From contig JACZTL010000005.1 in the NCBI GenBank assembly GCA_022573715.1, positions 7,265 through 71,264 on the forward strand: DNA of 64,000 nt, in the 5' to 3' direction. The notes under the pieces were generated by a model. It worked only from the letters and a program-made list of their open reading frames with translations, had not been told where the DNA came from and did no database searches. Source of the stretch: Bacteroidota bacterium (GTDB lineage: Bacteria; Bacteroidota; Ignavibacteria; Ignavibacteriales; Ignavibacteriaceae). This document shows positions 5,688 to 46,222 of the stretch, one piece after another. Numbering within the stretch: the first letter of the stretch is position 1; every line of letters starts with the position of its first letter. The position numbers and the translations under genes were made by a program.

Positions 5688-7921
5688 TGCGTAATGATCT
5701 GAAAAAAATATTTTCCAGAAAATTAATTACTCTTTTTAGTATAGTCTTAATCATAAATTTTATCCTACTTTTTTTCCCATTAACAAATGTTTTTGGATTC
5801 GAATTTTCTTTTGTTAATGCTATTCTAATAACTTTTTTGTCAGGTTTTATCTCAATCTCATATTTTAAAAAATTTAGTGCTAATTCTGAAATAAATAAAG
5901 AATTGTTTCAAACTTTAGCACAAATTGGAGTCATATTGCTTACAATTCCACTTGTTATTTCTCTTACACATTCACTTCTGGGATTCTCATGTTCATTTAA
6001 AGACGGAGTTCTTTTTTATTTGGTTTTAACTATTCCGTCGTATATTATTGGCTTAACATTAGGATTGATCGCATTTTCTATCAGTAGAAAATTTTCAGTT
6101 TTAGTATATCTTATTTTATTTTTTTTAATTCTTTCAATTCCTTTTTTTGAATTTTACCTCAACCCTCAAATATATTTTTTTAATCCCATATTTGGTTTTT
6201 TCCCGGGTACTATTTATGATGAAGGATTAAGCGTAAGTCTAATATTAATTTTATACAGATTTATAAATGTAATATTCTTTTTTACTGTTTTTTTATTGCT
6301 GATTAAATTCTTTTTCAGAAATAAAGACAATCAAAAAAAAAATATTGTAATAGCTTTCGCTCTAATTTCAGCTCTGATATTTATTTTTATTTCACCCTCC
6401 ATTAGCTTTTCTACTACTAAAAACAGTTTGGTAAAATACTTAAATAAAAAAGTTATTACTGAACACTTTGTTATACATTATCCGAATGATATTGAAGAGG
6501 ATGAAATTAAAATTATAACACTTCATCACGAGTATTATTTTTCAAGACTTAGTAAATTTTTTAATGTAGAAGTAAATAAAAAAATAGAGTCATTTATTTT
6601 TAATAGTAACAATGAAAAAGGAAGACTATTTGGATCTGCAAATGCCGATGTTGCTAAACCCTGGCTTCATCAAATTTATACTACTAAAGACAGTTATAAT
6701 AAAACCTTGGAACATGAAATCGCTCATATATTTTCAGCATCTTTCGGTGGTGGTATATTTAAAGTTGCAGATGGGTTAAATCCAACTTTGATTGAAGGGG
6801 CTGCGGTTGCCGGCTCTCCTTACTACGATGGATATTCCATTGATTATATGGCATCACTTGCATGGAAAAACGGTTACAGGATTAATATTAATAATCTCTT
6901 TAACGGAGTAAGTTTTTTCGGACAAACTTCATCGCTTTCATACATTTATGCCGGTTCATTTTCGAAATATTTAATTGATAATTACGGAATATCCAAGTTT
7001 AAATTGTTCTATAGTGACATTGATTTTACTAAAATTTACCATTCAGCGTTAAAAGATATGACAAACAAATATCATAATTATTTGGCAAATATTGATGTTA
7101 AAGAAGATAGCTCAAAAGCTAATTATTATTTTGGAAGAAAAACAATATTTCAAAAGGTTTGCCCAAGATATGTTTCAGATAGATTAAAGGATGCAGTAAC
7201 AGAATTTACACATCACAATTATAAAAATTCATCTAAAATTTATTCGGAGATTCTAAGTAAAACAAACAACTATTATGCACTTATTGGGTATGCTGAAGTA
7301 TCAAAAAAATTAAATAATACTCTTAAAGGATTATATAAAATTGAGAACAAGTTAAGAGATTTTATTAATACATCTTACTATTATAATCTACAATTTAAGT
7401 TAGCCGATCTATATTCACTAAGTAAAAAAACACTGCAAGCAAAATCTCTTTATAAAGAAATAGTTAAGGAGAAACCAAATATTTGGCTGCAGCACCTATC
7501 ATCGCTTAGACTGATTTTATTGAATTTTTCCGAACAATTGAATCTTTATCTTAATGGTACTCCAACTGACAAATTAGTATTATTGTTAGAGTTGATTAAT
7601 AAAAATAATGCTGATGTAATTTTACCTGTGGCAGTCAGACTTTCAAAAATTATTAATCTTGAATACAGCCTATTTATTAAAAACTTCATAAGTGATGAGA
7701 TTGTAGTGAATTTAAAAGATATTTATACCCTGAATGTTTTATCAATGTATATGTTAGATAATTTTGACTTTATAAATGCAAAAATTATGATTGAGAAAGC
7801 AGCAAGGAAAAGTAATGATCAATTTAATAACGAAATTATAAACTATAACAACAATAAAATAAATTGGATGTCTGATCATTATAGTTCAATTATAAGCAAA
7901 TTAAAAATCTACAACGATTAA
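5687..7921 (+). CDS. polytopic membrane protein with a peptidase-MA-like HExxH domain and a helical (TPR-like) C-terminal region
   Basis: About 240 N-terminal residues form multiple hydrophobic helices. The motif LEHEIAHIF (HExxH) follows, then an alpha-helical repeat-like tail. The start overlaps the murA stop (TAATG). Confidence 0.6.
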   Translation: MRNDLKKIFSRKLITLFSIVLIINFILLFFPLTNVFGFEFSFVNAILITFLSGFISISYFKKFSANSEINKELFQTLAQIGVILLTIPLVISLTHSLLGFSCSFKDGVLFYLVLTIPSYIIGLTLGLIAFSISRKFSVLVYLILFFLILSIPFFEFYLNPQIYFFNPIFGFFPGTIYDEGLSVSLILILYRFINVIFFFTVFLLLIKFFFRNKDNQKKNIVIAFALISALIFIFISPSISFSTTKNSLVKYLNKKVITEHFVIHYPNDIEEDEIKIITLHHEYYFSRLSKFFNVEVNKKIESFIFNSNNEKGRLFGSANADVAKPWLHQIYTTKDSYNKTLEHEIAHIFSASFGGGIFKVADGLNPTLIEGAAVAGSPYYDGYSIDYMASLAWKNGYRININNLFNGVSFFGQTSSLSYIYAGSFSKYLIDNYGISKFKLFYSDIDFTKIYHSALKDMTNKYHNYLANIDVKEDSSKANYYFGRKTIFQKVCPRYVSDRLKDAVTEFTHHNYKNSSKIYSEILSKTNNYYALIGYAEVSKKLNNTLKGLYKIENKLRDFINTSYYYNLQFKLADLYSLSKKTLQAKSLYKEIVKEKPNIWLQHLSSLRLILLNFSEQLNLYLNGTPTDKLVLLLELINKNNADVILPVAVRLSKIINLEYSLFIKNFISDEIVVNLKDIYTLNVLSMYMLDNFDFINAKIMIEKAARKSNDQFNNEIINYNNNKINWMSDHYSSIISKLKIYND

Positions 7922-9901: not shown

Positions 9902-11254
9902 ATGAGAACCATTCTCAGCATGCTTTGTGTAGTAACATTTATATCTGCAAGTTATGCACAACAATTTTTAAGTTTAGATAAAGCAATAACAATTGCTTTA
10001 CATAAAAATACAATTTTACAAAAATCAAAGAACAATTTAGAAGTTACAAAATCGGGTGTGAGAGCAGCAGTCGGTAATTTTCTGCCCACACTTTCAGCAA
10101 GTAGTAATTGGAATTGGAACAGGTCTGAAGATGCAGGAGGAACAATAAACATCAGTGGAACTGTAATACCTGTACCAGCATCAACAACCGAATCCAGAAA
10201 CTTTAACGGTAATCTAACAGCTAGATTAATGTTGTTTGATGGGCTATCTAATTTTGCTACTCTCTCTAAAAGTAAAAATGATTTATCCGCCGCAAGATTA
10301 GATCTCCAAAGATTAAAGCAAGATATTGTATTTCAGACTATCACACTATATTACAATGTTATAATTGGCAAACAGTTACTTCAAGTTAGAGAAGATGACT
10401 TAAAATGGAATAAAAGAAACCTGGAAACAGTTACCGAAAGCAACAAACTTGGTGCTGTAACTCTTGCAGATGTTTATGCTCAACAAGTCAAGACAGGTAA
10501 TTCAGAATTAGCATTAATTCAAGCTCAAAACAATTTTGAAACTGGTAAAAGTAATCTCTTAAATTATTTAGCATTAGATGTGCTTGGAGATTACAAATTT
10601 TCAAAAGAACTAACTCCCGAGGAAAAGTCTACTCTTAATGAAAAGATAAATATAGATTATAAAAATATATCGCAGTTAGTCTCTCAAGCATTAAATGTAA
10701 GAACAGATTACCAAAGTGCACAATTAAAATTGGAAAGTGCAAATAACGGAATTACAATTGCAAAGTCAGGGCATTTTCCAACTTTAAGTAATTCATTTTC
10801 TTACAATTTAAGAGCAAATAGATTTGAAAACTTCTTTGATTCAAGGACATACTTCGTAGGATTATCATTAAATATTCCAATTTTTTCAGGATTTAGAGTT
10901 TCTAATAATGTCCAATTTGCAGAAGTAACTGCACAAAATAAAGAAATTGATTTAAGCGATTTGGAAAGAGTAATTAAATTGAATCTTCAAAAAACCTATC
11001 TCGATTTGAAAGCAGCAGATAAAAGTTTAGAGGTAAATAAAAGAAATGTAAAAGCTGCAGAAGAAACTAGAAAAATAGAACAAGAAAGATACACCCTTGG
11101 TTCCGGCACTTTGCTGAATGTACTTATTGCAAGTTCAGATTATACAAATGCACGGACAAATTATATAACTGCTCAGTTTGAATATATCAGGCTAAGTAAA
11201 CAATTAAAGTATTATTTGGGTGATCTAAATTATAAAAAGTATGAAAAAGATTAA
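9902..11254 (+). CDS. TolC-family outer membrane efflux protein
   Basis: Signal peptide ending SASYAQ. Two-repeat TolC-like organisation with typical coiled-coil segments. First gene of an efflux operon. Confidence 0.85.
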   Translation: MRTILSMLCVVTFISASYAQQFLSLDKAITIALHKNTILQKSKNNLEVTKSGVRAAVGNFLPTLSASSNWNWNRSEDAGGTINISGTVIPVPASTTESRNFNGNLTARLMLFDGLSNFATLSKSKNDLSAARLDLQRLKQDIVFQTITLYYNVIIGKQLLQVREDDLKWNKRNLETVTESNKLGAVTLADVYAQQVKTGNSELALIQAQNNFETGKSNLLNYLALDVLGDYKFSKELTPEEKSTLNEKINIDYKNISQLVSQALNVRTDYQSAQLKLESANNGITIAKSGHFPTLSNSFSYNLRANRFENFFDSRTYFVGLSLNIPIFSGFRVSNNVQFAEVTAQNKEIDLSDLERVIKLNLQKTYLDLKAADKSLEVNKRNVKAAEETRKIEQERYTLGSGTLLNVLIASSDYTNARTNYITAQFEYIRLSKQLKYYLGDLNYKKYEKD

Positions 11255-17790: not shown

Positions 17791-20700
17791 TTGAAATTCT
17801 TAAAACAACTTAAGATATTTTGTGCATTTATTTTTCTATTTCAATTAAATAGCTACGCGCAAAATAACTTCAAATACATAACACACACCGATACATTATT
17901 AATCAATTATGAAAATTTATATAAAGTATCTGGCCTTACGGTTATACCATCAACTGAAACTATTTACTTAAATAATAAAATACTAAATAGAAATGAATAT
18001 AGTTTTACTTATTCAAAAGGTATATTTACCCTGTCGGATTCACTGTATTACTCAAATTATGATACTCTAATTGTTGTATATAAATCTTTGAGATTAGCAT
18101 TAAACAAAGAATATAAAAAAAGAACGTTAATAAGAAAGTTAGATAAAACAAAAAGTGACAGTATAAGTTATGTGGTTAGAGAAACAACATCTTTAACTGA
18201 AGAATCTATTTTTGGAAGAAATATGCAAAGAAGCGGAACTATTGTAAGAGGATTTACTTTTGGCACAACAAAAGATTTTTCTTTAAACAGTGGTTTGAGA
18301 TTACAACTTTCCGGGTGGTTATCTGATGATATAGAAGTTGTTGCAGCTTTGACTGATGAAAACACACCAATTCAGCCGGAAGGCAACACAGAAAGGTTGG
18401 AAGAGCTTGATAAAGTTTTTATTCAGCTAAAACATCCAAATGCTCAGGGTACTTTCGGTGACTATTTTGTAAAAAAGCAAACTGGTGAATTCGGTGTAAT
18501 CGATAGAAAATTGCAAGGATTAAAAGGTGAATTCAATTATAAATCTTCAGCTGGTTTTATATCTTTTGCATCCTCAAAAGGAAAATTTAATACAAATTCT
18601 TTTAACGGACAGGACGGAGTTCAGGGACCATACAGATTAACTGGGATTAATAATGAACCTGATATTATAGTTATTGCAGGGACAGAAAAAGTTTATATAG
18701 ACGGTATTCTGCAAAAGAGAGGTGAGCATAATGATTATGTAATTGAATACGGTAATGCCCAAATAACATTTACTCCGAATAAATTAATTACAGTAGACAG
18801 TAGAATAAATGTGGACTTTGAGTATACAGATAGACGATATTCGAGAAATTTTTTTGGTGCAGGAAGTGTCACAAAATTTTATAACAATAAACTAAAACTT
18901 AGTTTTCAATATATAAGAGAAGGCGATAATCAAAATGCACCAATTGATATATTACTGACAGACACAGATAAAGATATACTGCGAAACGCCGGAGATGATA
19001 TCAATAAAGCAACAAGAACCGGTATTTCACTTGCACCAAAAGATTCCAACGGTATAAGACAGGGTAGGTATGAAAAAATTGATACACTTATAAACAACAA
19101 ATCTTTTTCTTTTTACAGATATAATCCGGGTAACCCAAATTCAATTTACAACGTTGCATTTAGTTTTATTGGTTCTGCTAAAGCTGATTATTTACGTGAA
19201 AGTTTAGGCGTGTTTAAGTTTGTAGGTATTGGAATGGGTACATATTTACCGGTAATATTTTTACCCATGCCCCAATTAAATCAAGTGGGGAATTTTATAA
19301 TTAACTATAAGCCTAAAGATGGAATTGATCTTAGCTTTGAGTACTCGGGTAGCATTTTTGATAGGAACAGATTCTCTGATTTGGATGACAACAATAATTT
19401 TGGTTCGGCAAGAAATATTCATCTAAATATTTCTCCGCAAAAAATAGTTATAGGTAATTTTAAACTCGGGAAAATAGGTTTAACATATAAAGACAGATTC
19501 ATTAGCAATAAATACAGTCCGATTGACAGAATTAATACTATTGAATTTAACAGAGATTATAACCTAAATTCTTCTTTGGCTAATTTAGATCAAAATTTGA
19601 GAGAACTAAATCTTACGTACCTACCTTCAAAAAATTTATCAATTAATTCATTCTTTGGATTTTTAAGACAAGGTTCACTCTTCAAATCTGATAGGTATAA
19701 AAATACTATCCAGTATAATAAGGGTAATGATATAAATGCTTTTTATAATATTGATTTTGTTAAAACTGAAAATACAAATTTTACATCTAAATGGACCAGG
19801 CAGATAGGGGAAAGCAAATTTAATGTTTTCGGACTAACATCCGGTCTTAATTATTTAGCTGAAAATAAAGAAGAGATTAATTTAAATTCAGATTCATTAT
19901 TGGGCGGTAGTCTCAAGTATTATGATTATACTCCTTATTTATCTTACGAAAAGATAAATGGGTTAAAATTATCCTTCAAATATTCTTTCAGGAAAGATTA
20001 TGCTGCAATATCCGGGGATCTGTTAGAACAGGCAAATTCACAGGGTCAATTTTATGAAATTAATTATAGCGGTACTAGAACAATAAATACACACTTAACT
20101 GTTGTTTTAAGAAATAAAATTTTCGAAAAAGAATTTAAGGACAGAGGATTTAAAGACAGTAAAACAGTTTTAATTCGGTCTATCTCAAATATAAGATTAC
20201 TGCATAATGCTTTAACAGGGAATATTTTTTACGAAGTATCTACGCAAAAAACTGCAAAACTTCAGCAGATATTTGTTAAAGTTGAAAAGGGAAAAGGGAA
20301 TTTTATTTTTCTAGGAGATTTGAACAAAAATGGGATTCAAGATGAAAATGAATTTGAGCCTGCTTTATTTGACGGTGATTATATTAAAATTACTATTCCG
20401 ACAGATGAATTATTCCCTGTTATTAATTTAAAAACAAGTACTAATTGGAGAATAAGGTTTTCTGAATTTGTGAATAAAAATTCAACCTTAGGTAGGATTT
20501 TAAAACCGTTATCTATAGAAACTTTTTGGAGAGTTGAAGAAAACAGTCGCGAGGAAGATCTAAAGAAAATATATCTTTTAAATTTTTCATCGTTTCAAAA
20601 TATTATAAACACAATACGTGGTTCAAACTTTATTCAGCAAGATGTATTTATAAATGAAAATTCTTATGAATTCTCTCTCCGCTTCCGATTTACTCAATCA

Positions 20701-21270
20701 AAAAATCTAAATCAATTCAGCGACGGTCCTATTAGGTCATACATCAGAGAGAGAAGTATTCGCTTAAGAATGAAACTGGTAAAAGAAATTAGCAACCAAA
20801 CAGAATTCATAAATAAACAGGATAATGCATTTTTAGATTCCAATATCACATCAACAAGAAGAAGGCAGATTACAAGTAACAGTATTTCATCGGATTTTGT
20901 CTACAGGCCTGAAAATAATATCGAAGTAGGATTTACTTTGAAAGCAGGCAGAAGTACAGACGTATTTCCTGCTGTACCGACTGTTATAGATTTCAATTCA
21001 CAATCAATAAGGATGGTTTTATCGTTTTCGGGTAGAGGAAGATTTAGGGTTGATATTAGAAGAGATGAATTGCTTGGGAATACTGCAGGCAATATTTTAC
21101 CTTTTGAAATTACCGAAGGAAAACTGCTCGGCAAAAATTATTTTTGGAATGTAAGTTTTGAATATAAAATTGCCGCTAACCTTCAAACAAGTTTAAGTTA
21201 TGACGGTAGATTACGAGCAGGTGATAGAGCAGTTCACACTGCCCGTGCTGAATTTAGAGCATTTTTTTAA
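17791..21270 (+). CDS. large (1159 aa) outer-membrane beta-barrel protein of unknown function
   Basis: Signal peptide (FIFLFQLNSYAQ), alternating beta-strand-like sequence rich in aromatic residues and Asn/Gly turns, and a C-terminal beta-signal ending ...AEFRAFF. TTG start. Confidence 0.6.
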   Translation: MKFLKQLKIFCAFIFLFQLNSYAQNNFKYITHTDTLLINYENLYKVSGLTVIPSTETIYLNNKILNRNEYSFTYSKGIFTLSDSLYYSNYDTLIVVYKSLRLALNKEYKKRTLIRKLDKTKSDSISYVVRETTSLTEESIFGRNMQRSGTIVRGFTFGTTKDFSLNSGLRLQLSGWLSDDIEVVAALTDENTPIQPEGNTERLEELDKVFIQLKHPNAQGTFGDYFVKKQTGEFGVIDRKLQGLKGEFNYKSSAGFISFASSKGKFNTNSFNGQDGVQGPYRLTGINNEPDIIVIAGTEKVYIDGILQKRGEHNDYVIEYGNAQITFTPNKLITVDSRINVDFEYTDRRYSRNFFGAGSVTKFYNNKLKLSFQYIREGDNQNAPIDILLTDTDKDILRNAGDDINKATRTGISLAPKDSNGIRQGRYEKIDTLINNKSFSFYRYNPGNPNSIYNVAFSFIGSAKADYLRESLGVFKFVGIGMGTYLPVIFLPMPQLNQVGNFIINYKPKDGIDLSFEYSGSIFDRNRFSDLDDNNNFGSARNIHLNISPQKIVIGNFKLGKIGLTYKDRFISNKYSPIDRINTIEFNRDYNLNSSLANLDQNLRELNLTYLPSKNLSINSFFGFLRQGSLFKSDRYKNTIQYNKGNDINAFYNIDFVKTENTNFTSKWTRQIGESKFNVFGLTSGLNYLAENKEEINLNSDSLLGGSLKYYDYTPYLSYEKINGLKLSFKYSFRKDYAAISGDLLEQANSQGQFYEINYSGTRTINTHLTVVLRNKIFEKEFKDRGFKDSKTVLIRSISNIRLLHNALTGNIFYEVSTQKTAKLQQIFVKVEKGKGNFIFLGDLNKNGIQDENEFEPALFDGDYIKITIPTDELFPVINLKTSTNWRIRFSEFVNKNSTLGRILKPLSIETFWRVEENSREEDLKKIYLLNFSSFQNIINTIRGSNFIQQDVFINENSYEFSLRFRFTQSKNLNQFSDGPIRSYIRERSIRLRMKLVKEISNQTEFINKQDNAFLDSNITSTRRRQITSNSISSDFVYRPENNIEVGFTLKAGRSTDVFPAVPTVIDFNSQSIRMVLSFSGRGRFRVDIRRDELLGNTAGNILPFEITEGKLLGKNYFWNVSFEYKIAANLQTSLSYDGRLRAGDRAVHTARAEFRAFF

Positions 21271-31600: not shown

Positions 31601-34384
31601 ATGCTTAAAAAGATACTTATTATTTTACTGCTATTTATTTTTATAATATTTTTAGATTCTTGCGGTACTAATACTGAAATAATTCAAGATCAAAAGATAG
31701 ATACCGCTAAAATAAATACAAATGAAATTATATCTCAATTATTAGAACAGGCAAGACAGGACTATCTGACAGCATTAGAAAAACAGAAGACCGATAGTGA
31801 GGTAAAAGTAATTGATTATTTTGAATCAGCATTGAATACAATTAGTAGTTTAAGTTATTATCCGGGCATTGAAGATAATGAAGCCTATAATGAATTAGAA
31901 AATTCTATAGTAGAAGATTATAAAAGTTTTCTGGATAAACTTGATAAAATACCTACTGATGTTTCAATTTCTGCTTTGGATGAATGGATGAGTAAATCGA
32001 TTCCTGAAATTGAATTTACTGCAAAAAAAACTACAATAAAAAGAAAAAAATTCGAACCTTCCGGTTACAATTCTGAAATTCCCCTTGAAATAAATCCAAT
32101 TGTTCAGCAATGGCTCGATTATTTTCAAAATAAAGGAAGTGGGGTAATAAAAAGATGGTTTGAACGCTCAGGAAGATATTTCCCTATGATGGAAAAGATT
32201 TTCAGAGAAGAAGATGTTCCGAGACAGCTTTTATACCTTAGTATGGTTGAAAGCGGTTTAAACCCAAGAGCGCGTTCTTGGGCAAGAGCCGTTGGAATGT
32301 GGCAGTTTATAAGAGGCACAGGAAAATTGTACGGTTTAAAATCAGATTTTTATGTTGATGACAGAAGAAATCCACAACTTTCTACTAGAGCTGCAGCAAA
32401 ACATTTGAAGGACCTATATAATGAATTAGGTGATTGGTATTTGGCAATAGCAGCATATAATTCAGGAACTGGATGGATAAAGAGAGCAAAAAATAGATCA
32501 GGAGGGGATGAATTTTGGTCCATTAGATGGTTTTTACCAAGAGAAACAAGGAATTATGTTCCTCAATATATTGCCGTATGCATTATTGCTACAAATCCAG
32601 TAAAATACGGTGTTAAGGATTTGGAATATAAAAAGCCATTTGTATATGATAAATTTCTTGTAAAAGGAGCTATTGATATGCATTATTTGGCTTCAATTGC
32701 CGGTACATCTTTAAAAACTCTACGCAATATGAATCCCGAATTAACACAACAAAGTACGCCTACAGCAAAACGAGGTGGATATTATCTGAAAATTCCCAAA
32801 GGTTCTATTAAGAGATTCGCAAAGGGAATGCAAAACATTCCTAAAAGTGCAAGAGTTCATTTCTTATTTCATACTATTAGAAGGGGAGAAACATTATCCG
32901 GAATTGCACATCGTTACAGAATATCTACCAATAAGTTAGCCGATGCAAATAATATATCTAGACGATCAAGGATTTATGTTGGTCGTAAATTAAAAATTCC
33001 TGTTCTTAATGTTTTAAAACAGAATTATGCTTATAACCCGGATTTAACAACAGCAGTTGATAAAAATTCGCAGACTTACAAAGAGTCAATAGTAAATAAC
33101 CAAGATATTGCAGTCGATGATCTGCCAAAGATCAATCAGAATTACATTGTACCTGATGGTTTTGTTTCTGTTGATTACACCGTAAAGAGGAAGGACAGTT
33201 TAATAGGAATCGCGGATCTTTTTGAAGCAAGAGTAATTGACATTAGAAACTGGAATAACATACCTTATACTTCATCGTTTATAATAGGACAAAAATTAAA
33301 AATTTATGTGCCCAAGGAAAAGAAAGACTATTTTGTAAAATTGAACGAAAAGAATAAAGATACACTTTTCACTGTAATTCCTGTCATCAAAAAGAGTAAA
33401 GGCAGATGGCAATACCATAGAATAAGATACGGTGAAAGTCTCTCCACAATCGCAGAGAATTATGGTGTAAATGTTAGAAGGCTTAAAAGTTGGAACGGAC
33501 TGAGAAGCAGCAGAATCTATGTTGGCAAGCGATTAAGAATTTACGGTTTTGAAAGGAATTATGTAAGAAAAAAAGTAGCAGCTAAAAAAAATACACCAAA
33601 AGGAAGGTACACTTTATATAAAGTAAAAAAGGGGGATACCGTTGGTGAACTTTCGGAAAAGTTTAATGTATCTGTACGTGATATAAAAAGTTGGAACAAT
33701 CTAAGAACAAGCAGAATTGTTGCAGGCAAAAATTTAAGGATATACAATATTAAAAAAATTGTAATAACCAAAAAAGCAAAAACAACAAAAACAAGAAAAC
33801 AAGAACCGAATGATAAAAATATAATTTATTATACTGTTCACGAAGGTGACGCAATAAGTATAATTGCAGAAAAATTTGCCGTTTCAATTTCTGATATAAG
33901 AAAGTGGAACGGACTTAGTTCAAATAAAATAAGATACGGTAAAAAATTAAAAATAGTTTTAGAACCTGAGAAAAAAGTTGCTCAAATAAATTCTGAAAAA
34001 ATAAAAAAAGATAAAACAAAAAAAGAAAAACCTGTAAAAGGAATTTATGTTTTGGTAAAATCAGGAGACACAATAAGCCAAATTGCCGAAAAATATAACG
34101 TCTCTTCTAAAGAAATAAGAAACTGGAATAAATTAAAGGGCAATAAAATTATTGCAGGCAAAAAACTTAATATAATTCCAAGACCAAAACCCATTACAAA
34201 AGAATTAAAAAACAGCACTCAAGCCATTGTGAAAAATAACGGAAAAAAAATTCACATTGTTAGTAACGGAGAATCCCTCTGGACAATTGCAAGACAATTT
34301 AACACTTCAATAAAAAAGCTAAAAGAAATAAACTCTTTATACTCAAATAAACTTATTATAGGACAGGAGCTAATTGTTGAGTGA
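31601..34384 (+). CDS. MltD-like lytic transglycosylase lipoprotein with seven LysM domains
   Basis: Lipoprotein signal (LDSCG). SLT catalytic region ([25 protein letters not shown]...AAYNSG). Seven LysM repeats of the form Y.V..GD(T/S)L..IA......(I/L)..WN.L....I..G..L.I. Confidence 0.85.
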
Positions 34385-34465
34385 TTAAATATTTCGTACA
34401 TTAAAAGTAAATTTTAGCGGGGTTTTTATGAAATTATTATTTCCTTTCATTTTCTCATTTCTTTT
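34289..34465 (+). repeat. direct repeat copy 1 (3' end of the mltD-like gene plus downstream sequence)
   Basis: Aligns with 35259-35437 at an offset of 970-971 bp. A 70-bp core is identical (34373-34442 = 35344-35413). The coding-side flank has scattered mismatches and one indel. Confidence 0.85.
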
Positions 34466-35258: not shown

Positions 35259-35437
35259 GCAAGACAGTAACAACACTTCTATAAAAAAGTTGAAAGAAAT
35301 AAACTCTCTATACTCAAACAAACTTATTATCGGTCAGGAACTTATTGTTGAGTGATTAAATATTTCGTACATTAAAAGTAAATTTTAGCGGGGTTTTTAT
35401 GAAATTATTATTTTCTATCTTATTTTCTTTTCTTTAC
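35259..35437 (+). repeat. direct repeat copy 2 (non-functional duplicate of the mltD-like 3' end)
   Basis: Begins 2 nt after the PIN stop. It encodes a remnant of the last LysM (..[27 protein letters not shown]) but with an early stop (gca aga cag taa). Confidence 0.85.
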
Positions 35438-35968
35438 TCGGAAGAGTATTCAGCTAATTTTAACGCAGAAGAATTAACTTCAGTTGTGTGTGTTTTTACA
35501 AGCTTAAAAAAAATAATCTTGCAGTATAGTTTAATAAATGTTTTATACGAATCTGCAAGTTAAGTAATAATTAGGAAACAGGAATTATTGATTACGTAAT
35601 TTAGAACGCTAAGCCCATTACTTAATAAAAGAATAATAAAATGGACACTTTGCAGAAATCAATACAAAATTCAGAACATTTCTTTTCTGAATATCAGATT
35701 ATTTTTTGGTCTCTTTTGGCCATCATATTAATTCCTTTAGCCGTACACTATCTTCAAAATAGGAAAGAAAAAAAAAAGACTCTTACATACATTTCGTGGA
35801 GGTAAATGGTATAAGGCATTAGGTATTACTTATCATCTATTTAAAGAAGCCAGACCTTATAGCAAATATTTTCATCGTGATGAAATCGAAAATATAATCC
35901 TAGAAAAAATCAACAACAAAAAAGATATTGTTCTTCTAGGCGCTCCCCTGCGAGGCAAAACCAGAACA

Positions 35969-37825
35969 ATGGTAGAGTGCATACGACAGCTTAAAAACAC
36001 ATTTGTATTAATCCCTTATCCTTCCGATTATAACACCGAAATTATATTTCCAAGGCAACACCTTCTTAGAAGAAAAAACAGAATTGTTGTTTTCAATGAT
36101 CTACAAAAATTCTTTGAGCCTGGCAAAGACATTTTGAAACTTATTGACAAAATAAAGGAACAAGATTGGCATATACTAGCTAATTGCAGAACAGTAGAAG
36201 AATGGGAAACCGTAAAACGTCTTTGGGGTATTTCATCGAACATATTAGAGCCGATTGAAATTCCAGAAGTAGATGAAAATTTTGCTTTGCAGGTTGCCGC
36301 GCTCAATGGAATTCCTCTTCCATCTTATTTCGATCGCAAAAATATTGGAACCATATTTGTCAATCTTGATGAAATGCGGCTAAGGTATAATTCCAAAATA
36401 TCCAACACTCAAAAACAAATACTTATCGCAATTAAAAAACTTTTATTTGTTGGAGTTAATAATTCAAAAGGAGAAATACTATTGTCATCAATAAAAGAGC
36501 TGACTGGCTTGCTCCCTTTACAGTTAACTGATCCTGAATGGCTAGACAATCTGACGGGTATAATTGAAAAAGGATTTGTTTCCGGATCGCATTTAGCAGT
36601 GGTTCCCGAACAGGTCTATTTCGACCTTATTATTGAGCCTCAACTTTCAATCGGAGATATCATAAATGACATTATAAAAATATCTGGAGAGAACAATCGA
36701 GTTTTAAACAAGCTGATCTACTCAGCTGAAACATCAGAAAAGGCAATCGATATTATTCGGGAATTTCAAAAAGCGAGCATCAAGCTTGATGTCTACCACT
36801 ATAATATAGCAATAGCTAAGCAAAAAAGTGAAAGGGAAGGGAAAAGATTATTGGATGAAATGATAAAAAAGGGAATTCCACCCGATGTAGTTACATACAC
36901 TACTCTCATCCATCTCTGCAAGGATTATAATTTAGCCGTTGCTCTCAAAACTGAAATGATAAAAAAGGAAATTGCGCCCAATGTTATTACATACTCTACG
37001 CTTATCAATCTCTGCAAGGATTATAATTTAGCCGTTTCCCTCAAAAATGAAATGATAAAAAAGGGAATCGCGCCCAATGTAGTTACATACACTACTCTCA
37101 TCCATCTCTGCAAGGATTATAATTTAGCCGTTGCTCTCAAAACTGAAATGATAAAAAAGGGAATCATGCCCGATGTAGTTACATACACTACTCTCATCCA
37201 TCTCTGCAAGGATTATAATTTAGCCGTTGCTCTCAAAACTGAAATGATAAAAAAGGAAATTACGCCCGATGTAGTTACATACAATACTCTCATCCATCTC
37301 TGCAAGGATTATAATTTAGCCGTTGCTCTCAAAACTGAAATGATTAAAAAGGGAATCACGCCCGATGTAGTTACATACAATACTCTCATCCATCTCTGCA
37401 AGGATTATAATTTAGCCGTTGCTCTCAAAACTGAAATGATTAAAAAGGGAATCACGCCCGATGTAGTTACATACAATACATTATTAGAAAAAGCTGAAAA
37501 TGAAGGAGATACAATTAAATGGATTATTGAATTTTGCTCAACAGACCTTATTCCCAATGCAAGAACTGCAGCAAGCCTTGAAAAAGCTATTCCCTTGTTT
37601 GTCGCAAGTTCAAGATTAAATGAAATGTTTGACATGTTGCTTCGTTTCAACCCAATATTGTTTTTCAGTTTGATTAGTAATTTTGATATTGATATAGTAA
37701 GCAAATTCATCTTAGAATTCCCTACCGAAATAAAATCTACAGATTTTAATAAACTTGGATTTGTTAATTATTATCTTCACCAAAAAAGGACTGATTTAGC
37801 GAAGAATTTTCTAGATATATGTTAA
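35969..37825 (+). CDS. largest intact ORF of the disrupted NTPase/PPR-like gene
   Basis: ORF-track entry of 618 aa. Contains a Walker-B-like IVVFNDL, a helical middle domain and the tandem repeats VVTY(T/N)TLIHLCKDYNLAVALKTEMIKKGI.P(D/N). Confidence 0.6.
   Translation: MVECIRQLKNTFVLIPYPSDYNTEIIFPRQHLLRRKNRIVVFNDLQKFFEPGKDILKLIDKIKEQDWHILANCRTVEEWETVKRLWGISSNILEPIEIPEVDENFALQVAALNGIPLPSYFDRKNIGTIFVNLDEMRLRYNSKISNTQKQILIAIKKLLFVGVNNSKGEILLSSIKELTGLLPLQLTDPEWLDNLTGIIEKGFVSGSHLAVVPEQVYFDLIIEPQLSIGDIINDIIKISGENNRVLNKLIYSAETSEKAIDIIREFQKASIKLDVYHYNIAIAKQKSEREGKRLLDEMIKKGIPPDVVTYTTLIHLCKDYNLAVALKTEMIKKEIAPNVITYSTLINLCKDYNLAVSLKNEMIKKGIAPNVVTYTTLIHLCKDYNLAVALKTEMIKKGIMPDVVTYTTLIHLCKDYNLAVALKTEMIKKEITPDVVTYNTLIHLCKDYNLAVALKTEMIKKGITPDVVTYNTLIHLCKDYNLAVALKTEMIKKGITPDVVTYNTLLEKAENEGDTIKWIIEFCSTDLIPNARTAASLEKAIPLFVASSRLNEMFDMLLRFNPILFFSLISNFDIDIVSKFILEFPTEIKSTDFNKLGFVNYYLHQKRTDLAKNFLDIC
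36791..37558 (+). repeat. tandem array of 8 x 96 bp coding repeats (32-aa PPR-like motifs)
   Basis: Unit starts are 36791, 36887, 36983, 37079, 37175, 37271, 37367 and 37463. Units at 37271 and 37367 are identical over 96/96 nt. The six central units are near-identical and the outer two are diverged. Confidence 0.9.
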
Positions 37826-38238
37826 ACGCATAATTATTACTTTTATAAGTATTCTGGAAATTATTGGTACCAGACTGGTGATGGAGCACGAGCGGAAGAA
37901 AATTATAAAAAAGCGGTTACACTTTCAGAAAACGAAATACAACGGGCAAGAATTTATAATAAATTAGCAGAACTTATTAAAGATCTCAACATAAATAATA
38001 AAATTGATGAGGCAATTGAATATTGCAAGCAATCTATTTACATCCAACCGGATAATTCGCCTGAAGCAAAGCAACTATTAACTTTTTTTACTATTGAATT
38101 TAATTCAATAGATGACTTATCAGAAAAAATAAAAGAACTTAAGATTAAATATAAAATTGGTAAAAAGACTATTTCAGTGGCATTAAGTGATATCAATGAT
38201 GAAATAAAAAAAAGTTTAATTAGAGAATATTTTTTATG

Positions 38239-38418
38239 ATAATACCAAGTCATTGTAGATTCAACGGTGGTTTTGTGTTCACCGGGTATTGAGTTAAAGT
38301 ACTGGACAAAGTTATAGTCAACATTTTTAATGTTTTCTTGTTTGACGATTTTCCCGGAAGAACCAACAGTAGTCAAATATGAAGTAAACTTGTGAAGATC
38401 GGTGCCTGTGTAATACAT
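38239..38418 (-). mobile_element. IS110-family transposase gene fragment (N-terminal ~60 codons only)
   Basis: MYYTGTDLHKFTSYLTTVGSSGKIVKQENIKN....GEHKTTVESTMTWYY resembles the IS110 DEDD N-terminus (GxDLHK ... hhhE.T..Y). Similarity stops near 38240. The rest of the track ORF is antisense to the + strand TPR-like segment. Confidence 0.5.
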
Positions 38419-39125: not shown

Positions 39126-40112
39126 TTGTTCAAAGTCGGTAAAATAGAAAGAGAAAAAGCCATTTTATTGGCGCCTATGGAAGATGTAACAGACATTTCA
39201 TTTCGATTGATATGTAAAGAACTCGGTGCTGATGTAGTCTATACGGAATTTGTAAATGCAGAAGGATTGATTCGTTCTTCGGAAAGGACGCACCAAAAAC
39301 TTAAAATTATTGAGGAAGAACGTCCGGTTGGAATTCAAATTTACGGAGGAAATACAAAATCAATGGTCGGGGCTGCAAAAATTGCAGAAGAAGAATCACC
39401 CGATTTAATTGATATAAATGCTGGCTGCTGGGTCAAAGGTGTAGTAAAATTAGGTGCCGGAGCCGGTCTGTTAAAAGACCCCGTTTACATGCAGAATTTA
39501 GTGAAAGAAGTTATTGATTCAGTTCAATTACCTGTAACGGTTAAAACACGTTTGGGCATTGACGATAAAAGTATTCAAATATTAGAAGTTGCAAAAAGGC
39601 TTGAAGATGCGGGAGCTTCTGCGCTTACTATCCATTGCAGAACAAGGGTAATGGGGCATAAGGGAGAAGCATACTGGGAGTGGATTCCAAGAATTAAAGA
39701 AGTAGTAGATATTCCAGTCGTACTTAACGGGGATGTATTAACACCACACGATGTAAAGGAAGCGTTTGATAAAACTAATGCAGATGGAGTAATGATTGCG
39801 CGGGGTGCAATCGGGAATCCTTGGATATTTAAAGAAGCCAAAGAACTTATAAATGATGGTTATATAACTACAATAATTGATGAAGAACTTAGAATTAAAA
39901 CATGCTTAAGACATCTTGAACTTGCAATAAAAGTTAAAGGAGAAAGAAGAGCAATATTGGAACACAGAAAATTTTATTCCGGTTATCTCCGTAGTCTTCC
40001 GAATGTATCGCAAATAAGGAAAGCATTAATGGTACCAGTTAGCTATGGTGAGATTGAAGATATTCTTTTAGACTATTCTGAAAAATTGAAAGGTATGAGT
40101 GTAACAGTATAA
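39126..40112 (+). CDS. dus: tRNA-dihydrouridine synthase
   Basis: LAPMEDVTD, IDINAGCW, KTRLG and HCRT motifs. TTG start. Confidence 0.9.
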   Translation: MFKVGKIEREKAILLAPMEDVTDISFRLICKELGADVVYTEFVNAEGLIRSSERTHQKLKIIEEERPVGIQIYGGNTKSMVGAAKIAEEESPDLIDINAGCWVKGVVKLGAGAGLLKDPVYMQNLVKEVIDSVQLPVTVKTRLGIDDKSIQILEVAKRLEDAGASALTIHCRTRVMGHKGEAYWEWIPRIKEVVDIPVVLNGDVLTPHDVKEAFDKTNADGVMIARGAIGNPWIFKEAKELINDGYITTIIDEELRIKTCLRHLELAIKVKGERRAILEHRKFYSGYLRSLPNVSQIRKALMVPVSYGEIEDILLDYSEKLKGMSVTV

Positions 40113-45708: not shown

Positions 45709-45783
45709 CGGGGCGTAGCGTAGTCCGGTTATCGCGCCTGCTTTGGGAGCAGGAGGTCGCAAGTTCGAATCTTGCCGCCCCGA
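45709..45783 (+). tRNA. tRNA-Pro (anticodon UGG)
   Basis: Acceptor cggggcg/cgccccg. Anticodon stem cctgc/gcagg with loop tTTGGga. T-arm gcaagttcgaatcttgc. Confidence 0.9.
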
Positions 45784-45807
45784 CAAAGTTTTTTTGAAAT
45801 GTTGGAT

Positions 45808-45877
45808 GTTATCGCGTCCCGATGGTATCGGGAAGGTCACAAGTTTCCGTCAAAAGCCAGACTGCCCCGACAAAGTT
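45808..45877 (+). pseudogene. decayed partial duplicate of tRNA-Pro
   Basis: gttatcgcg...aggtcacaagttt...gccccgacaaagtt aligns with the D-loop, T-arm and 3' end of the upstream tRNA-Pro. It lacks the 5' acceptor strand, and its anticodon arm is replaced by tcccgat-ggt-atcggga (3-nt loop). Confidence 0.55.
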
Positions 45878-45916
45878 CTTATATATTTTTTAATGTTAGA
45901 TGATTTTTGCTAACCT

Positions 45917-45990
45917 GCGCCCGTAGCTCAATCGGATAGAGCAACAGCCTTCTAAGCTGTAGGTTAGTGGTTCGAGTCCACTCGGGCGTA
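45917..45990 (+). tRNA. tRNA-Arg (anticodon UCU)
   Basis: Acceptor gcgcccg/cgggcgt. Anticodon stem acagc/gctgt with loop cTTCTaa. T-arm gtggttcgagtccac. Confidence 0.9.
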
Positions 45991-46050
45991 CAAAGCATAT
46001 TTTTTGGATATACTTTTTTATATATTTATAAAAGAATCAATATTTAATAT

Positions 46051-46124
46051 GGTGGGCGTAGCTCAGTCGGTAGAGCATCAGGTTGTGGCCCTGAGGGTCG
46101 TGGGTTCAATCCCCATCGCTCACC
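46051..46124 (+). tRNA. tRNA-His (anticodon GUG) with encoded G-1
   Basis: An extra 5' G pairs with C73. Anticodon stem tcagg/cctga with loop tTGTGgc. T-arm gtgggttcaatcccc. Confidence 0.9.
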
Positions 46125-46147
46125 CTCCAATTATATATTTTTAATTA

Positions 46148-46219
46148 GGCCCCATCGTCTAATGGTTAGGACCTCGCCCTTTCACGGCGGTAATAGGGGT
46201 TCAAATCCCCTTGGGGTCA
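46148..46219 (+). tRNA. tRNA-Glu (anticodon UUC)
   Basis: Acceptor ggcccca/tggggtc. Anticodon loop cTTTCac. T-arm ggggttcaaatcccc. Confidence 0.9.
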
Positions 46220-46222
46220 CAT

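Follow-up and report, generated by a model that had tools for sequence, protein, structure and literature searches.

The 64,000-nt stretch analyzed here, referred to as the window, covers positions 7,265 to 71,264 (forward strand) of contig JACZTL010000005.1 (assembly GCA_022573715.1) of a Bacteroidota bacterium of the family Ignavibacteriaceae. It contains a tandem array of eight 32-amino-acid (aa) pentatricopeptide repeat (PPR) units at 36791–37558, which is part of a disrupted gene spanning 35641–38239; the gene and all its parts lie on the plus strand. After two repairs of the reading frame, the reconstructed product of 865 aa was colinear with the intact homologous proteins P0002, P0003, P0004, P0005 and P0007. 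It comprises, in this order, a transmembrane helix, a STAND-type NTPase/helical/winged-helix module, the PPR array, a helical cap and a TPR-like tail. Taken together, this architecture, the identity of the repeats as PPR and the status as a pseudogene are held with high confidence. The mechanically called open reading frame (ORF) of 618 aa (35969–37825) begins just past the Walker A motif and stops at a premature TAA. The same truncated ORF, with fewer repeats, was found in locus L001 (P0001).

The eight units were characterized with Tandem Repeats Finder (TRF), in-frame translation, Pfam, TIGR00756, AlphaFold2 (AF2) and Foldseek. In register with the 618-aa ORF, they occupy 36791–36886, 36887–36982, 36983–37078, 37079–37174, 37175–37270, 37271–37366, 37367–37462 and 37463–37558, and their translation runs from VYHYN... 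to ...LIPN. TRF reported one array (36856–37479; period 96, 6.5 copies, 93% matches, score 1066). It is preceded by a degenerate leading helical hairpin, LIYSAETSEKAIDIIREFQKASIKLD, at 36713–36790, seen in the translation and as AF2 helices at residues 2–9 and 14–26 of the array model. It is followed at 37559–37822 by a conserved all-helical cap, which aligned with all orthologues and was predicted to be helical by AF2 with a predicted local distance difference test (pLDDT) score above 90.

The six central units (36887–37462) share 83–96 of 96 nt in pairwise comparison, and the units at 37271 and 37367 are identical over all 96 nt. Units 1 and 8 share just 40–46 of 96 nt with the other units and are kept as caps in all orthologues, in which the number of central units varies from 1 to about 10. 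Since the DNA units are near-identical, the array is considered to have expanded recently. Among the central units, 16 nucleotide sites vary, five of them synonymously. The non-synonymous sites alter residues 5 and 32 and also residues 2, 9, 19, 22, 28 and 30, and most differences trace to a single diverged, older unit (36983). From unit 1 to unit 8, residue 5 is N, T, S, T, T, N, N, N; the last residue is, in the same order, D, N, N, D, D, D, D, N. Thus, TRF and in-frame translation reproduced the preliminary description of the array with respect to the eight units and their sequences, the fully identical pair and the two residue strings. Its remarks that positions other than the code positions vary as well and that the repeats expanded recently were likewise borne out.

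The number of units was compared with that in the two other assemblies of the species. Locus L001 (ENA MEGAHIT contig, k = 141, 99% identical) holds three units with a single central one. Locus L007 (116-kb scaffold, 99.7% identical) has a 100-N gap within the array, with about 3.7 units before and 1.85 units after the gap. The count of eight was therefore not independently confirmed by L001 or L007, and short reads are unable to fix it because two units are identical over 96 of 96 nt. These same features could indicate that the true array is shorter and that the assembled one, or its eight-unit count, is an artefact, but this is very improbable. The units can be told apart by substitutions that occur in a consistent order, the first 3.7 or so and the final 1.85 units are independently reproduced in L007 at 99.7% identity, and intact orthologues hold 1 to about 10 central units. 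Moreover, repeats in short-read assemblies are collapsed rather than expanded. A different true count would alter how many units there are but not what kind of feature the array is. At locus L006, from another lineage, the otherwise identical proteins P0005 and P0006 differ by exactly three 32-aa repeats (839 versus 743 aa). Thus, a copy-number difference, or an assembly collapse, recurs outside the species of the window.

The preliminary description had assigned the repeats to PPR rather than to TPR or Sel1, and both the Pfam comparison and the structure prediction that it had proposed agreed with this assignment. The 618-aa ORF matched PPR_2 (E = 4e-61, 203.3 bits, cut-off 30), PPR_3 (E = 2e-47, 159.5 bits, cut-off 25), PPR_1 (E = 2e-38, 130.3 bits, cut-off 23.8), PPR_long (54.1 bits, cut-off 27) and PPR (26.3 bits, cut-off 25). 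No TPR or Sel1 family matching the array was among the 19 Pfam families listed at E ≤ 10. The NCBIfam model TIGR00756 was matched with E = 6e-19 (66.9 bits, cut-off 20), and the top phmmer match among PDB sequences was the designer protein dPPR-U8G2 (5i9h; E = 2e-145). The AF2 model of the array with its cap (pLDDT 94.7) predicted a regular succession of paired helices, about 10 and 13 residues long. In a Foldseek search of the PDB, the best 50 matches to this model were all PPR-containing (cPPR-Telo1, dPPR-U10, PPR10 and mitoribosomal PPRs). The match to 5orm had a value of 1e-16, and local matches were obtained to 4pjr (TMt 0.77, root-mean-square deviation 2.7 Å) and 4ozs (TMt 0.81, 2.4 Å).

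In the alignment to dPPR, residue 5 pairs with residue 5, and residue 32 with residue 35, of the 35-aa motif. The difference in length is due to one residue missing after position 9, at the end of helix A, and two residues missing within helix B. The period of 32 is not peculiar to the window: it was found in all 44 clearly periodic non-plant (metagenomic or prokaryotic) homologues, while 64 plant homologues had a period of 35. The array therefore departs from the canonical 35-residue unit, with a period of 32 aa or 96 nt. Its profile hidden Markov model scores, its predicted two-helix solenoid fold and the base-specifying residues at position 5 and the last position are those of PPR proteins. 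By all sequence and fold criteria except canonical length, the array is a genuine PPR array in an unusually short 32-residue form (PPR32).

Compared with plant P-class and designer PPR proteins (dPPR, cPPR; 5i9h, 5i9f, 5orm, 4m59), the window array has the same helix-turn-helix repeat and a very similar consensus, VVTYNTLI..LCK....A..L..EM..KGI.PD, with N, S or T at residue 5 and D or N at the last residue, and its predicted solenoid matches the solved fold. In contrast to P-class proteins, its repeat has 32 rather than 35 residues, lies on a bacterial chromosome, and is fused to a transmembrane helix and a STAND NTPase. Its units are near-identical in DNA and variable in copy number, and there is no organellar context. 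The S motifs of plant PLS-class proteins have the same length of 31–32 aa. However, the window repeats are nearest to the P-type consensus with a deletion of 1 + 2 residues, and they form a uniform array without P-L-S triplets and without E/DYW domains.

A few PPR proteins of Legionella or Ralstonia have reportedly been proposed as effectors acting on eukaryotic host RNA metabolism. Likewise, the window protein could be a eukaryote-like effector, acquired from a plant or protist by horizontal transfer and manipulating host RNA metabolism. The repeats are near the plant P-class consensus, with 34–46% identity to designer PPRs over the columns aligned by Foldseek, and PPRs are regarded as essentially absent from prokaryotes: according to the 2013 literature, PPR proteins are not usually present in prokaryotes (PMC4029402). 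This origin is nevertheless the least credible of the explanations considered. The repeats are fused to a prokaryotic transmembrane helix and STAND NTPase whose relatives mostly carry TPR, the 32-aa period occurs in all 44 prokaryotic or metagenomic homologues and in 0 of the 64 plant homologues, and the host is a free-living-type member of the Ignavibacteria/Bacteroidota with ordinary chromosomal neighbors around the gene. The statement of the preliminary description that PPRs are rare in bacteria understates a sizeable prokaryotic class with 32-aa repeats.

The gene is interrupted by two lesions. First, an A10 homopolymer at 35768–35777, read directly from the sequence, causes a +1 frameshift. 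The resulting first ORF fragment of 54 aa (35641–35805) ends at a frameshift-induced stop and represents the N-terminus of the gene, as it matches the N-termini of P0002, P0007 and P0009 with the shared pattern MDT(L/I)Q..., a hydrophobic helix and RERKK. Deleting one A, i.e., restoring A9, joins this fragment to the frame of Walker A and the 618-aa ORF. A10 is also present in L001, while L007 has A9 and is in frame. Second, an in-frame premature TAA lies at 37823–37825, where homologues carry S, A, T, E or V; it is common to the window, L001 and L007. Reading through the TAA leaves 137 codons open to a TGA at 38237–38239. This C-terminal tail (37826–38239) has no in-frame ATG, aligns colinearly with the ends of P0002, P0005 and P0007, and matched TPR_8, TPR_2 and TPR_1 with E values of 3.5e-5 to 1.2e-4, under the gathering cut-offs.

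Both lesions are real. Judged by its sequence, the gene is broken, and its inactivation is recent since the long 3' tail is still open. A conserved phase switch at the A run was considered and rejected: A9/A10 is polymorphic between strains, yet no comparable run occurs in homologues. As none of five homologous genes has a long A run at this site, an ordinary homopolymer slip is the simpler reading. Reassignment of TAA was rejected as well, since translation with table 11 gave normal products for the window's other ORFs. Neither the 618-aa ORF nor the adjoining 149-aa ORF had a match when looked up by exact sequence; the corresponding look-up of the PIN protein encoded upstream led to L007.

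The N-terminal part contains a single predicted transmembrane helix, IIFWSLLAIILIPLAVHYLQN (35698–35760; mean Kyte-Doolittle value 2.33 over 19 aa), followed by the K/R-rich stretch RKEKKR. AF2 predicted a long helix at residues 17–49 of the N-terminal model in this region. The NTPase, helical and winged-helix module, delimited approximately by AF2 and Foldseek, extends from 35890 to 36712. Its Walker A motif GAPLRGKT (35939–35962) is located 5' of the ATG of the 618-aa ORF and is cut off from the start codon of the gene by the frameshift. Walker B, identified by translation and alignment, reads IVVFND (36083–36100). The P-loop pattern of Walker A GxxxxGK[ST] and Walker B hhhhDD is thus present, with N for the first D in the window gene. 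G105/K106 of Walker A are invariant in the homologue alignment, and G107/K108 are nearly invariant across 97 family members. The first acidic residue of Walker B is N in the window gene and in its two closest relatives, P0007 and P0009, while DD is found in at least 90% of the family; in this subclade, hhhhND may entail altered hydrolysis.

The full architecture is shared by the homologues P0002–P0007, P0009–P0011 and P0013, with lengths of 700–1070 aa. A short N-terminus is followed by the hydrophobic helix with RERKK, Walker A (G.PLRGKT), Walker B (hhhh[DN]D) and a helical/winged-helix region. In the sensor part, variable central units, numbering from 1 to about 10, lie between a first and a last PPR unit that are both conserved, and the helical cap and the TPR-like tail follow. 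Scans of the N-terminal module with Pfam, NCBIfam and PADLOC gave no usable family name. When the AF2 model of the NTPase module (pLDDT 78.5) was compared with the PDB by Foldseek, the top matches were Avs4 (8dgf; 8e-7), ORC/Cdc6 and EfAvs5 (9jap), with CED-4, MalT (8bob) and Apaf-1 at lower ranks (E range 8e-7 to 3e-4).

Relatives of the NTPase were collected by a profile search of 1.84 billion representative proteins, which yielded 713 metagenomic clusters, 385 of them at E ≤ 1e-10. Scans with a single narrow peptide pattern returned two relatives in genomes (among 185,579 species genomes), two in metagenomes and none in IMG/VR viral contigs. They are unusable as abundance estimates because of the narrow pattern, and the profile search is the better measure. 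Among 60 members scanned, TPR_12 was found in 39, PPR_2/PPR_3 in 19 and TPR-S in 13. A predicted transmembrane helix was located about 85 aa before Walker A in 68 of 89 family members, with a median of four K/R in the next 12 residues. Some extended members were without this helix: P0200 and P0240 are TIR_2 (ThsB-like)-NTPase-PPR32 proteins, P0201 is a CHAT-NTPase-PPR32 protein, and P0262 is a Schlafen (AlbA_2)-NTPase-TPR protein. TIR_2 also appeared in the precomputed domain list of P0106. SIR2 was matched neither in the window protein nor in any relative scanned.

Since the extended members swap the transmembrane helix and most relatives carry TPR, the helix occupies the position of an immune effector and the PPR array that of a TPR sensor. 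A C-terminal repeat sensor combined with a variable N-terminal effector, as in STAND proteins, is thus found across the relatives. Where PPR sensors might have an immune role, the TIR- and CHAT-NTPase-PPR32 proteins stand out as the clearest candidates. The preliminary description had viewed the array as a sequence-specific RNA (or single-stranded DNA) reader; it is not a free-standing one but the sensor arm of a membrane-anchored STAND NTPase gene, which is broken here.

The residues at the base-reading positions were then compared across prokaryotic PPR32 proteins. Composition was determined for 363 unique 32-aa units from 44 proteins (identity down to about 25%). Position 5 was occupied by N (54%), S (19%), T (12%) or G (9%), and position 32 by N (47%), D (41%), S (6%) or T (3%). 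The commonest 5/32 pairs were ND, NN, SN, SD, TN, GN, NS and TD, i.e., the alphabet of the plant code. For analysis of turnover, repeats identical in at least 26 of 32 residues were grouped within each protein, and minimal changes were counted per position in 28 proteins. Positions 32 and 5 ranked first and second, with 34 and 33 of 359 minimal changes, which is 3.0-fold and 2.7-fold the between-protein background. Changes at these two positions exceeded expectation in 26 of the 28 proteins (sign test p = 1.5e-6). The pooled binomial value of 8e-15 overstates the significance of this enrichment because the changes are not independent. In the NTPase-linked subset, positions 5 and 32 accounted for 17.3% of the changes compared to 6.5% expected, and in the remainder for 19.2%. 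The derived code strings used all four bases and were not conserved between orthologues. The earlier proposal that the code positions are being varied was weak within the window alone, but was supported statistically across the 28 related prokaryotic proteins.

Much of the code-position signal was supplied by a second prokaryotic architecture, in which a conserved N-terminal domain of about 170 aa (KFTGDGWLL, LRLAICSG, DWVGDSARRA) precedes 8–13 uniform 32-aa PPR units. It was found in the metagenomic proteins P0021, P0027, P0028, P0030, P0040, P0042, P0053, P0091 and P0111. P0027 is labeled 'class 3 adenylate cyclase' in one source. The single N-terminus scanned, that of P0028, had no Pfam match, and the sole PDB sequence matches were four nucleotide cyclases with weak E values of 0.04–0.7.

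The pattern of turnover bears on the nature of the ligand. In one alternative, the protein would likewise be an NLR-like STAND sensor, but its PPR solenoid would bind a phage protein, and positions 5 and 32 would vary as residues of the concave surface and not as base readers. This main rival reading is considered less likely than not. TPR_12 sensors predominate among members of the NTPase family (39 of 60), all characterized Avs sensors bind proteins via shape complementarity (PMC13581612), and the Avs5 study regards TPR, Sel1 and PPR repeats alike as protein-binding (PMC12931631). Positions 26, 18 and 22 were also among the more frequently changed. However, a broad alphabet would be expected for a protein-binding surface, but over the 363 units the two positions were limited to N/S/T/G and N/D/S/T. 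Furthermore, the positions most variable in the long term (15, 16, 19 and 30) were not the first to change and showed no enrichment in young repeats. A 1.7-fold enrichment among the young-repeat changes was also seen at position 2, which in plant PPRs is the third residue that contacts the base. Since the alphabet at positions 5 and 32 is restricted and fast-toggling, a single-stranded nucleic-acid ligand is tentatively favored, at somewhat less than an even chance.

The genomic context of the gene was inspected at six loci. The window itself represents an ordinary bacterial chromosome, with genes for chorismate synthase, the methylmalonyl-CoA decarboxylase alpha subunit, a MltD/LysM protein and DusB as well as several tRNAs. 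The chorismate synthase shares 79–88% identity with its counterparts in Ignavibacteria/Ignavibacteriales and matches that of 'MAG Bacteroidetes bacterium' at 100% identity, in line with an Ignavibacteria-like Bacteroidota lineage. The disrupted gene lies directly downstream of a DUF6364-PIN toxin-antitoxin pair. The family member at L005 adjoins a MvaI/BcnI restriction enzyme, a methyltransferase and DUF559; the member at L006 adjoins AIPR and GmrSD; and the member at L009 is near AbiGi and a lone TIR gene. Thus, defense-type neighbors were found at four of the six loci (the window pair, L005, L006 and L009). Nothing defense-like surrounded the gene at the other two, L004 and L011, which have ordinary metabolic genes.

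The latter two loci, together with true PPRs bearing code-type residues, would be in line with a housekeeping function, namely that of a membrane-tethered RNA-binding regulator that stabilizes, processes or localizes a specific cellular transcript in the manner of organellar PPR proteins and has no role in conflict. Such a function is improbable, as the species can dispense with the gene, which is broken in each of its three assemblies, and as the distribution is patchy (with the pattern used, two matches in 185,579 species genomes). Neither repeat number nor code strings are conserved between orthologues, TIR, CHAT and Schlafen occur in paralogous architectures, and restriction, Abi and toxin-antitoxin genes are neighbors at several loci. 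A conflict or immune role, as suggested by domain composition and gene neighborhood, is considered fairly likely.

Several further features of the region were recorded. The DUF6364-PIN cassette is flanked by a direct repeat (34301–34464 and 35272–35435; 164–178 nt, about 90% identical, 971 nt apart), which suggests that the cassette was inserted or duplicated at the locus. The first copy (34301–34464) overlaps the 3' end of the MltD/LysM gene. Repeat and cassette are arranged alike in L001 and L007. On the minus strand, the 3' part of a 126-aa ORF (38038–38418) runs antisense to the tail of the PPR gene; L001 and L007 have this ORF annotated as a gene. By eye, its N-terminus (MYYTGTDLHKFTSY...) resembled a remnant of an IS110-type transposase; it had no Pfam match, and this assignment is not claimed. 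In L007, which is fragmented beyond the array, a second 100-N gap (10442–10541, corresponding to 39422–39719 of the window) lies in the DusB region. Elsewhere in the window, an ORF of 1159 aa (17791–21270) was without NCBIfam match at E ≤ 1e-5. A tRNA gene cluster on the plus strand (45709–46220) has four members, Pro-TGG, Arg-TCT, His-GTG and Glu-TTC, and a tRNA-Leu(TAG) gene lies on the minus strand at 1311–1394.

The organization of the family resembles that of known bacterial receptors. In Avs5 (AVAST type 5; SIR2-nSTAND3-repeat sensor), too, a STAND-type NTPase is joined to a sensor of alpha-helical repeats at the C-terminus; EfAvs5 was among the top folds, and nSTAND3 was matched by relatives of the window gene. 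A PPR-type sensor also has precedent, since the sensor of PaAvs5-3 (SIR2-nSTAND3) was predicted to contain PPR, which was noted without further analysis (PMC12931631). In contrast to Avs5, the window family is without SIR2, and its N-terminus is a single transmembrane helix or, in paralogous architectures, TIR, CHAT or Schlafen. The window protein also fails the nSTAND3 model, and neither a regular 32-aa array nor variation at code positions has been described for Avs5. Avs1–4 and other NLR-like STAND receptors (PMC13581612) share the tripartite effector-NTPase-sensor logic, with Avs4 (8dgf) as the best fold match, and several loci of the window family lie in defense-type neighborhoods. Their sensors, however, are TPR-like and bind phage proteins, whereas the window sensor is a PPR array with residues suited to base recognition, and the effector position is taken by a bare transmembrane helix. 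In the literature searched, no paper besides the Avs5 study (PMC12931631) linked PPR with bacterial STAND proteins, and no description was found of a 32-residue PPR period, of transmembrane-, TIR- or CHAT-PPR-sensor architectures, of cyclase-like-PPR proteins or of turnover at code positions. The receptor logic and the repeat are known; the form, the combination and the evolutionary pattern are new.

The best-supported reading is that the window gene is a decayed member of an undescribed transmembrane-STAND-PPR32 branch of NLR/Avs-like conflict NTPases. In its complete form, this reading is that the gene was inactivated recently, that it encoded a STAND (NLR/Avs-like) NTPase with a PPR32 sensor and a single-pass membrane anchor, and that intact family members would act as nucleic-acid-triggered conflict receptors; as a whole, it is given slightly better than an even chance. 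In intact members, the inner groove of the PPR solenoid would bind an invader-derived ligand, which, given the restricted N/S/T and D/N alphabet at the base-reading positions, would be single-stranded RNA or DNA. Binding would free the NTPase module for oligomerization. The N-terminal module would then act, with clustered transmembrane helices damaging the membrane or signaling there, or with TIR, CHAT or Schlafen in the paralogous architectures, leading to abortive infection or growth arrest. Duplicated or deleted 96-bp units, together with substitutions at residues 5 and 32, would give rise to new specificities.

The specific code reading proposed in the preliminary description, UAAGGUUC with the variable part AAGGUU, has to be qualified in this light. 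The code residues are as it had given them. However, the gene is broken by the frameshift and the nonsense codon, so that the reading is probably that of a dead or dying, non-functional allele. Moreover, the variable reader would consist of at most the six central units (AAGGUU), as units 1 and 8 are conserved caps in all orthologues. On the whole, the observation of the preliminary description was confirmed, while its interpretation was partly supported.

A number of points weigh against the conflict-receptor reading. With regard to the array, the global template modeling (TM) score of its model to dPPR was just 0.54–0.60 compared to local values of 0.77–0.81, and the loss of three residues per repeat may alter the superhelix. 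G was frequent at position 5 in the P0010/P0013 subfamily, and synonymous/non-synonymous counts (28/35 at six loci) were too sparse to show selection. With regard to the NTPase, the fold matches had TM scores of just 0.3–0.37, and ClpB/Hsp104 AAA+ proteins scored similarly. The module of the window protein reached no Pfam NTPase family, including nSTAND3 (PF20720), and matches to nSTAND3 in relatives were weak (10 of 60 at E ≤ 1e-3, best 1.4e-6; P0206 scored 25.4 bits against a gathering cut-off of 27.2, and P0010 had E = 0.12). PADLOC v2 holds no model for the window protein, with PDC-S01 as the sole, weak match (E = 2.6e-4). With regard to function, the putative link of family members to phage defense is drawn from genomic context, which was not defense-like at L004 and L011, and the activity of the window gene itself cannot be judged because the gene is broken. 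Finally, all characterized STAND sensors bind proteins or small molecules (PMC13581612), so that nucleic-acid sensing would be unprecedented for the class.

A wider version of the conflict-receptor reading is speculative and rather unlikely as a whole. According to this version, prokaryotic NLR-like receptors and cyclase-like signaling proteins would carry programmable PPR32 arrays that read invader RNA or single-stranded DNA by the plant two-residue code and are diversified by 96-bp duplication and toggling at positions 5 and 32, and they may represent the prokaryotic root of eukaryotic PPRs.

Since the window copy is a decayed allele, the value of the finding rests in the family and not in this gene. 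The locus leads to a sizeable prokaryotic PPR class with its own 32-residue repeat, although PPRs are regarded as eukaryotic, organelle-centred and programmable readers of RNA. Its members are coupled to modules of immune type (a STAND NTPase with a transmembrane helix, TIR or CHAT) and, separately, to a cyclase-like domain, and the two base-reading residues are precisely those that change fastest. If the arrays read nucleic acid, the family would include the first STAND/NLR-type receptor that senses sequence instead of protein shape. Its targets would then be computable from sequence and could be matched to co-occurring phages in a manner similar to CRISPR spacers, and the arrays would provide compact natural scaffolds for RNA-targeting tools. 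The PPR32 class also bears on the origin of eukaryotic PPRs.

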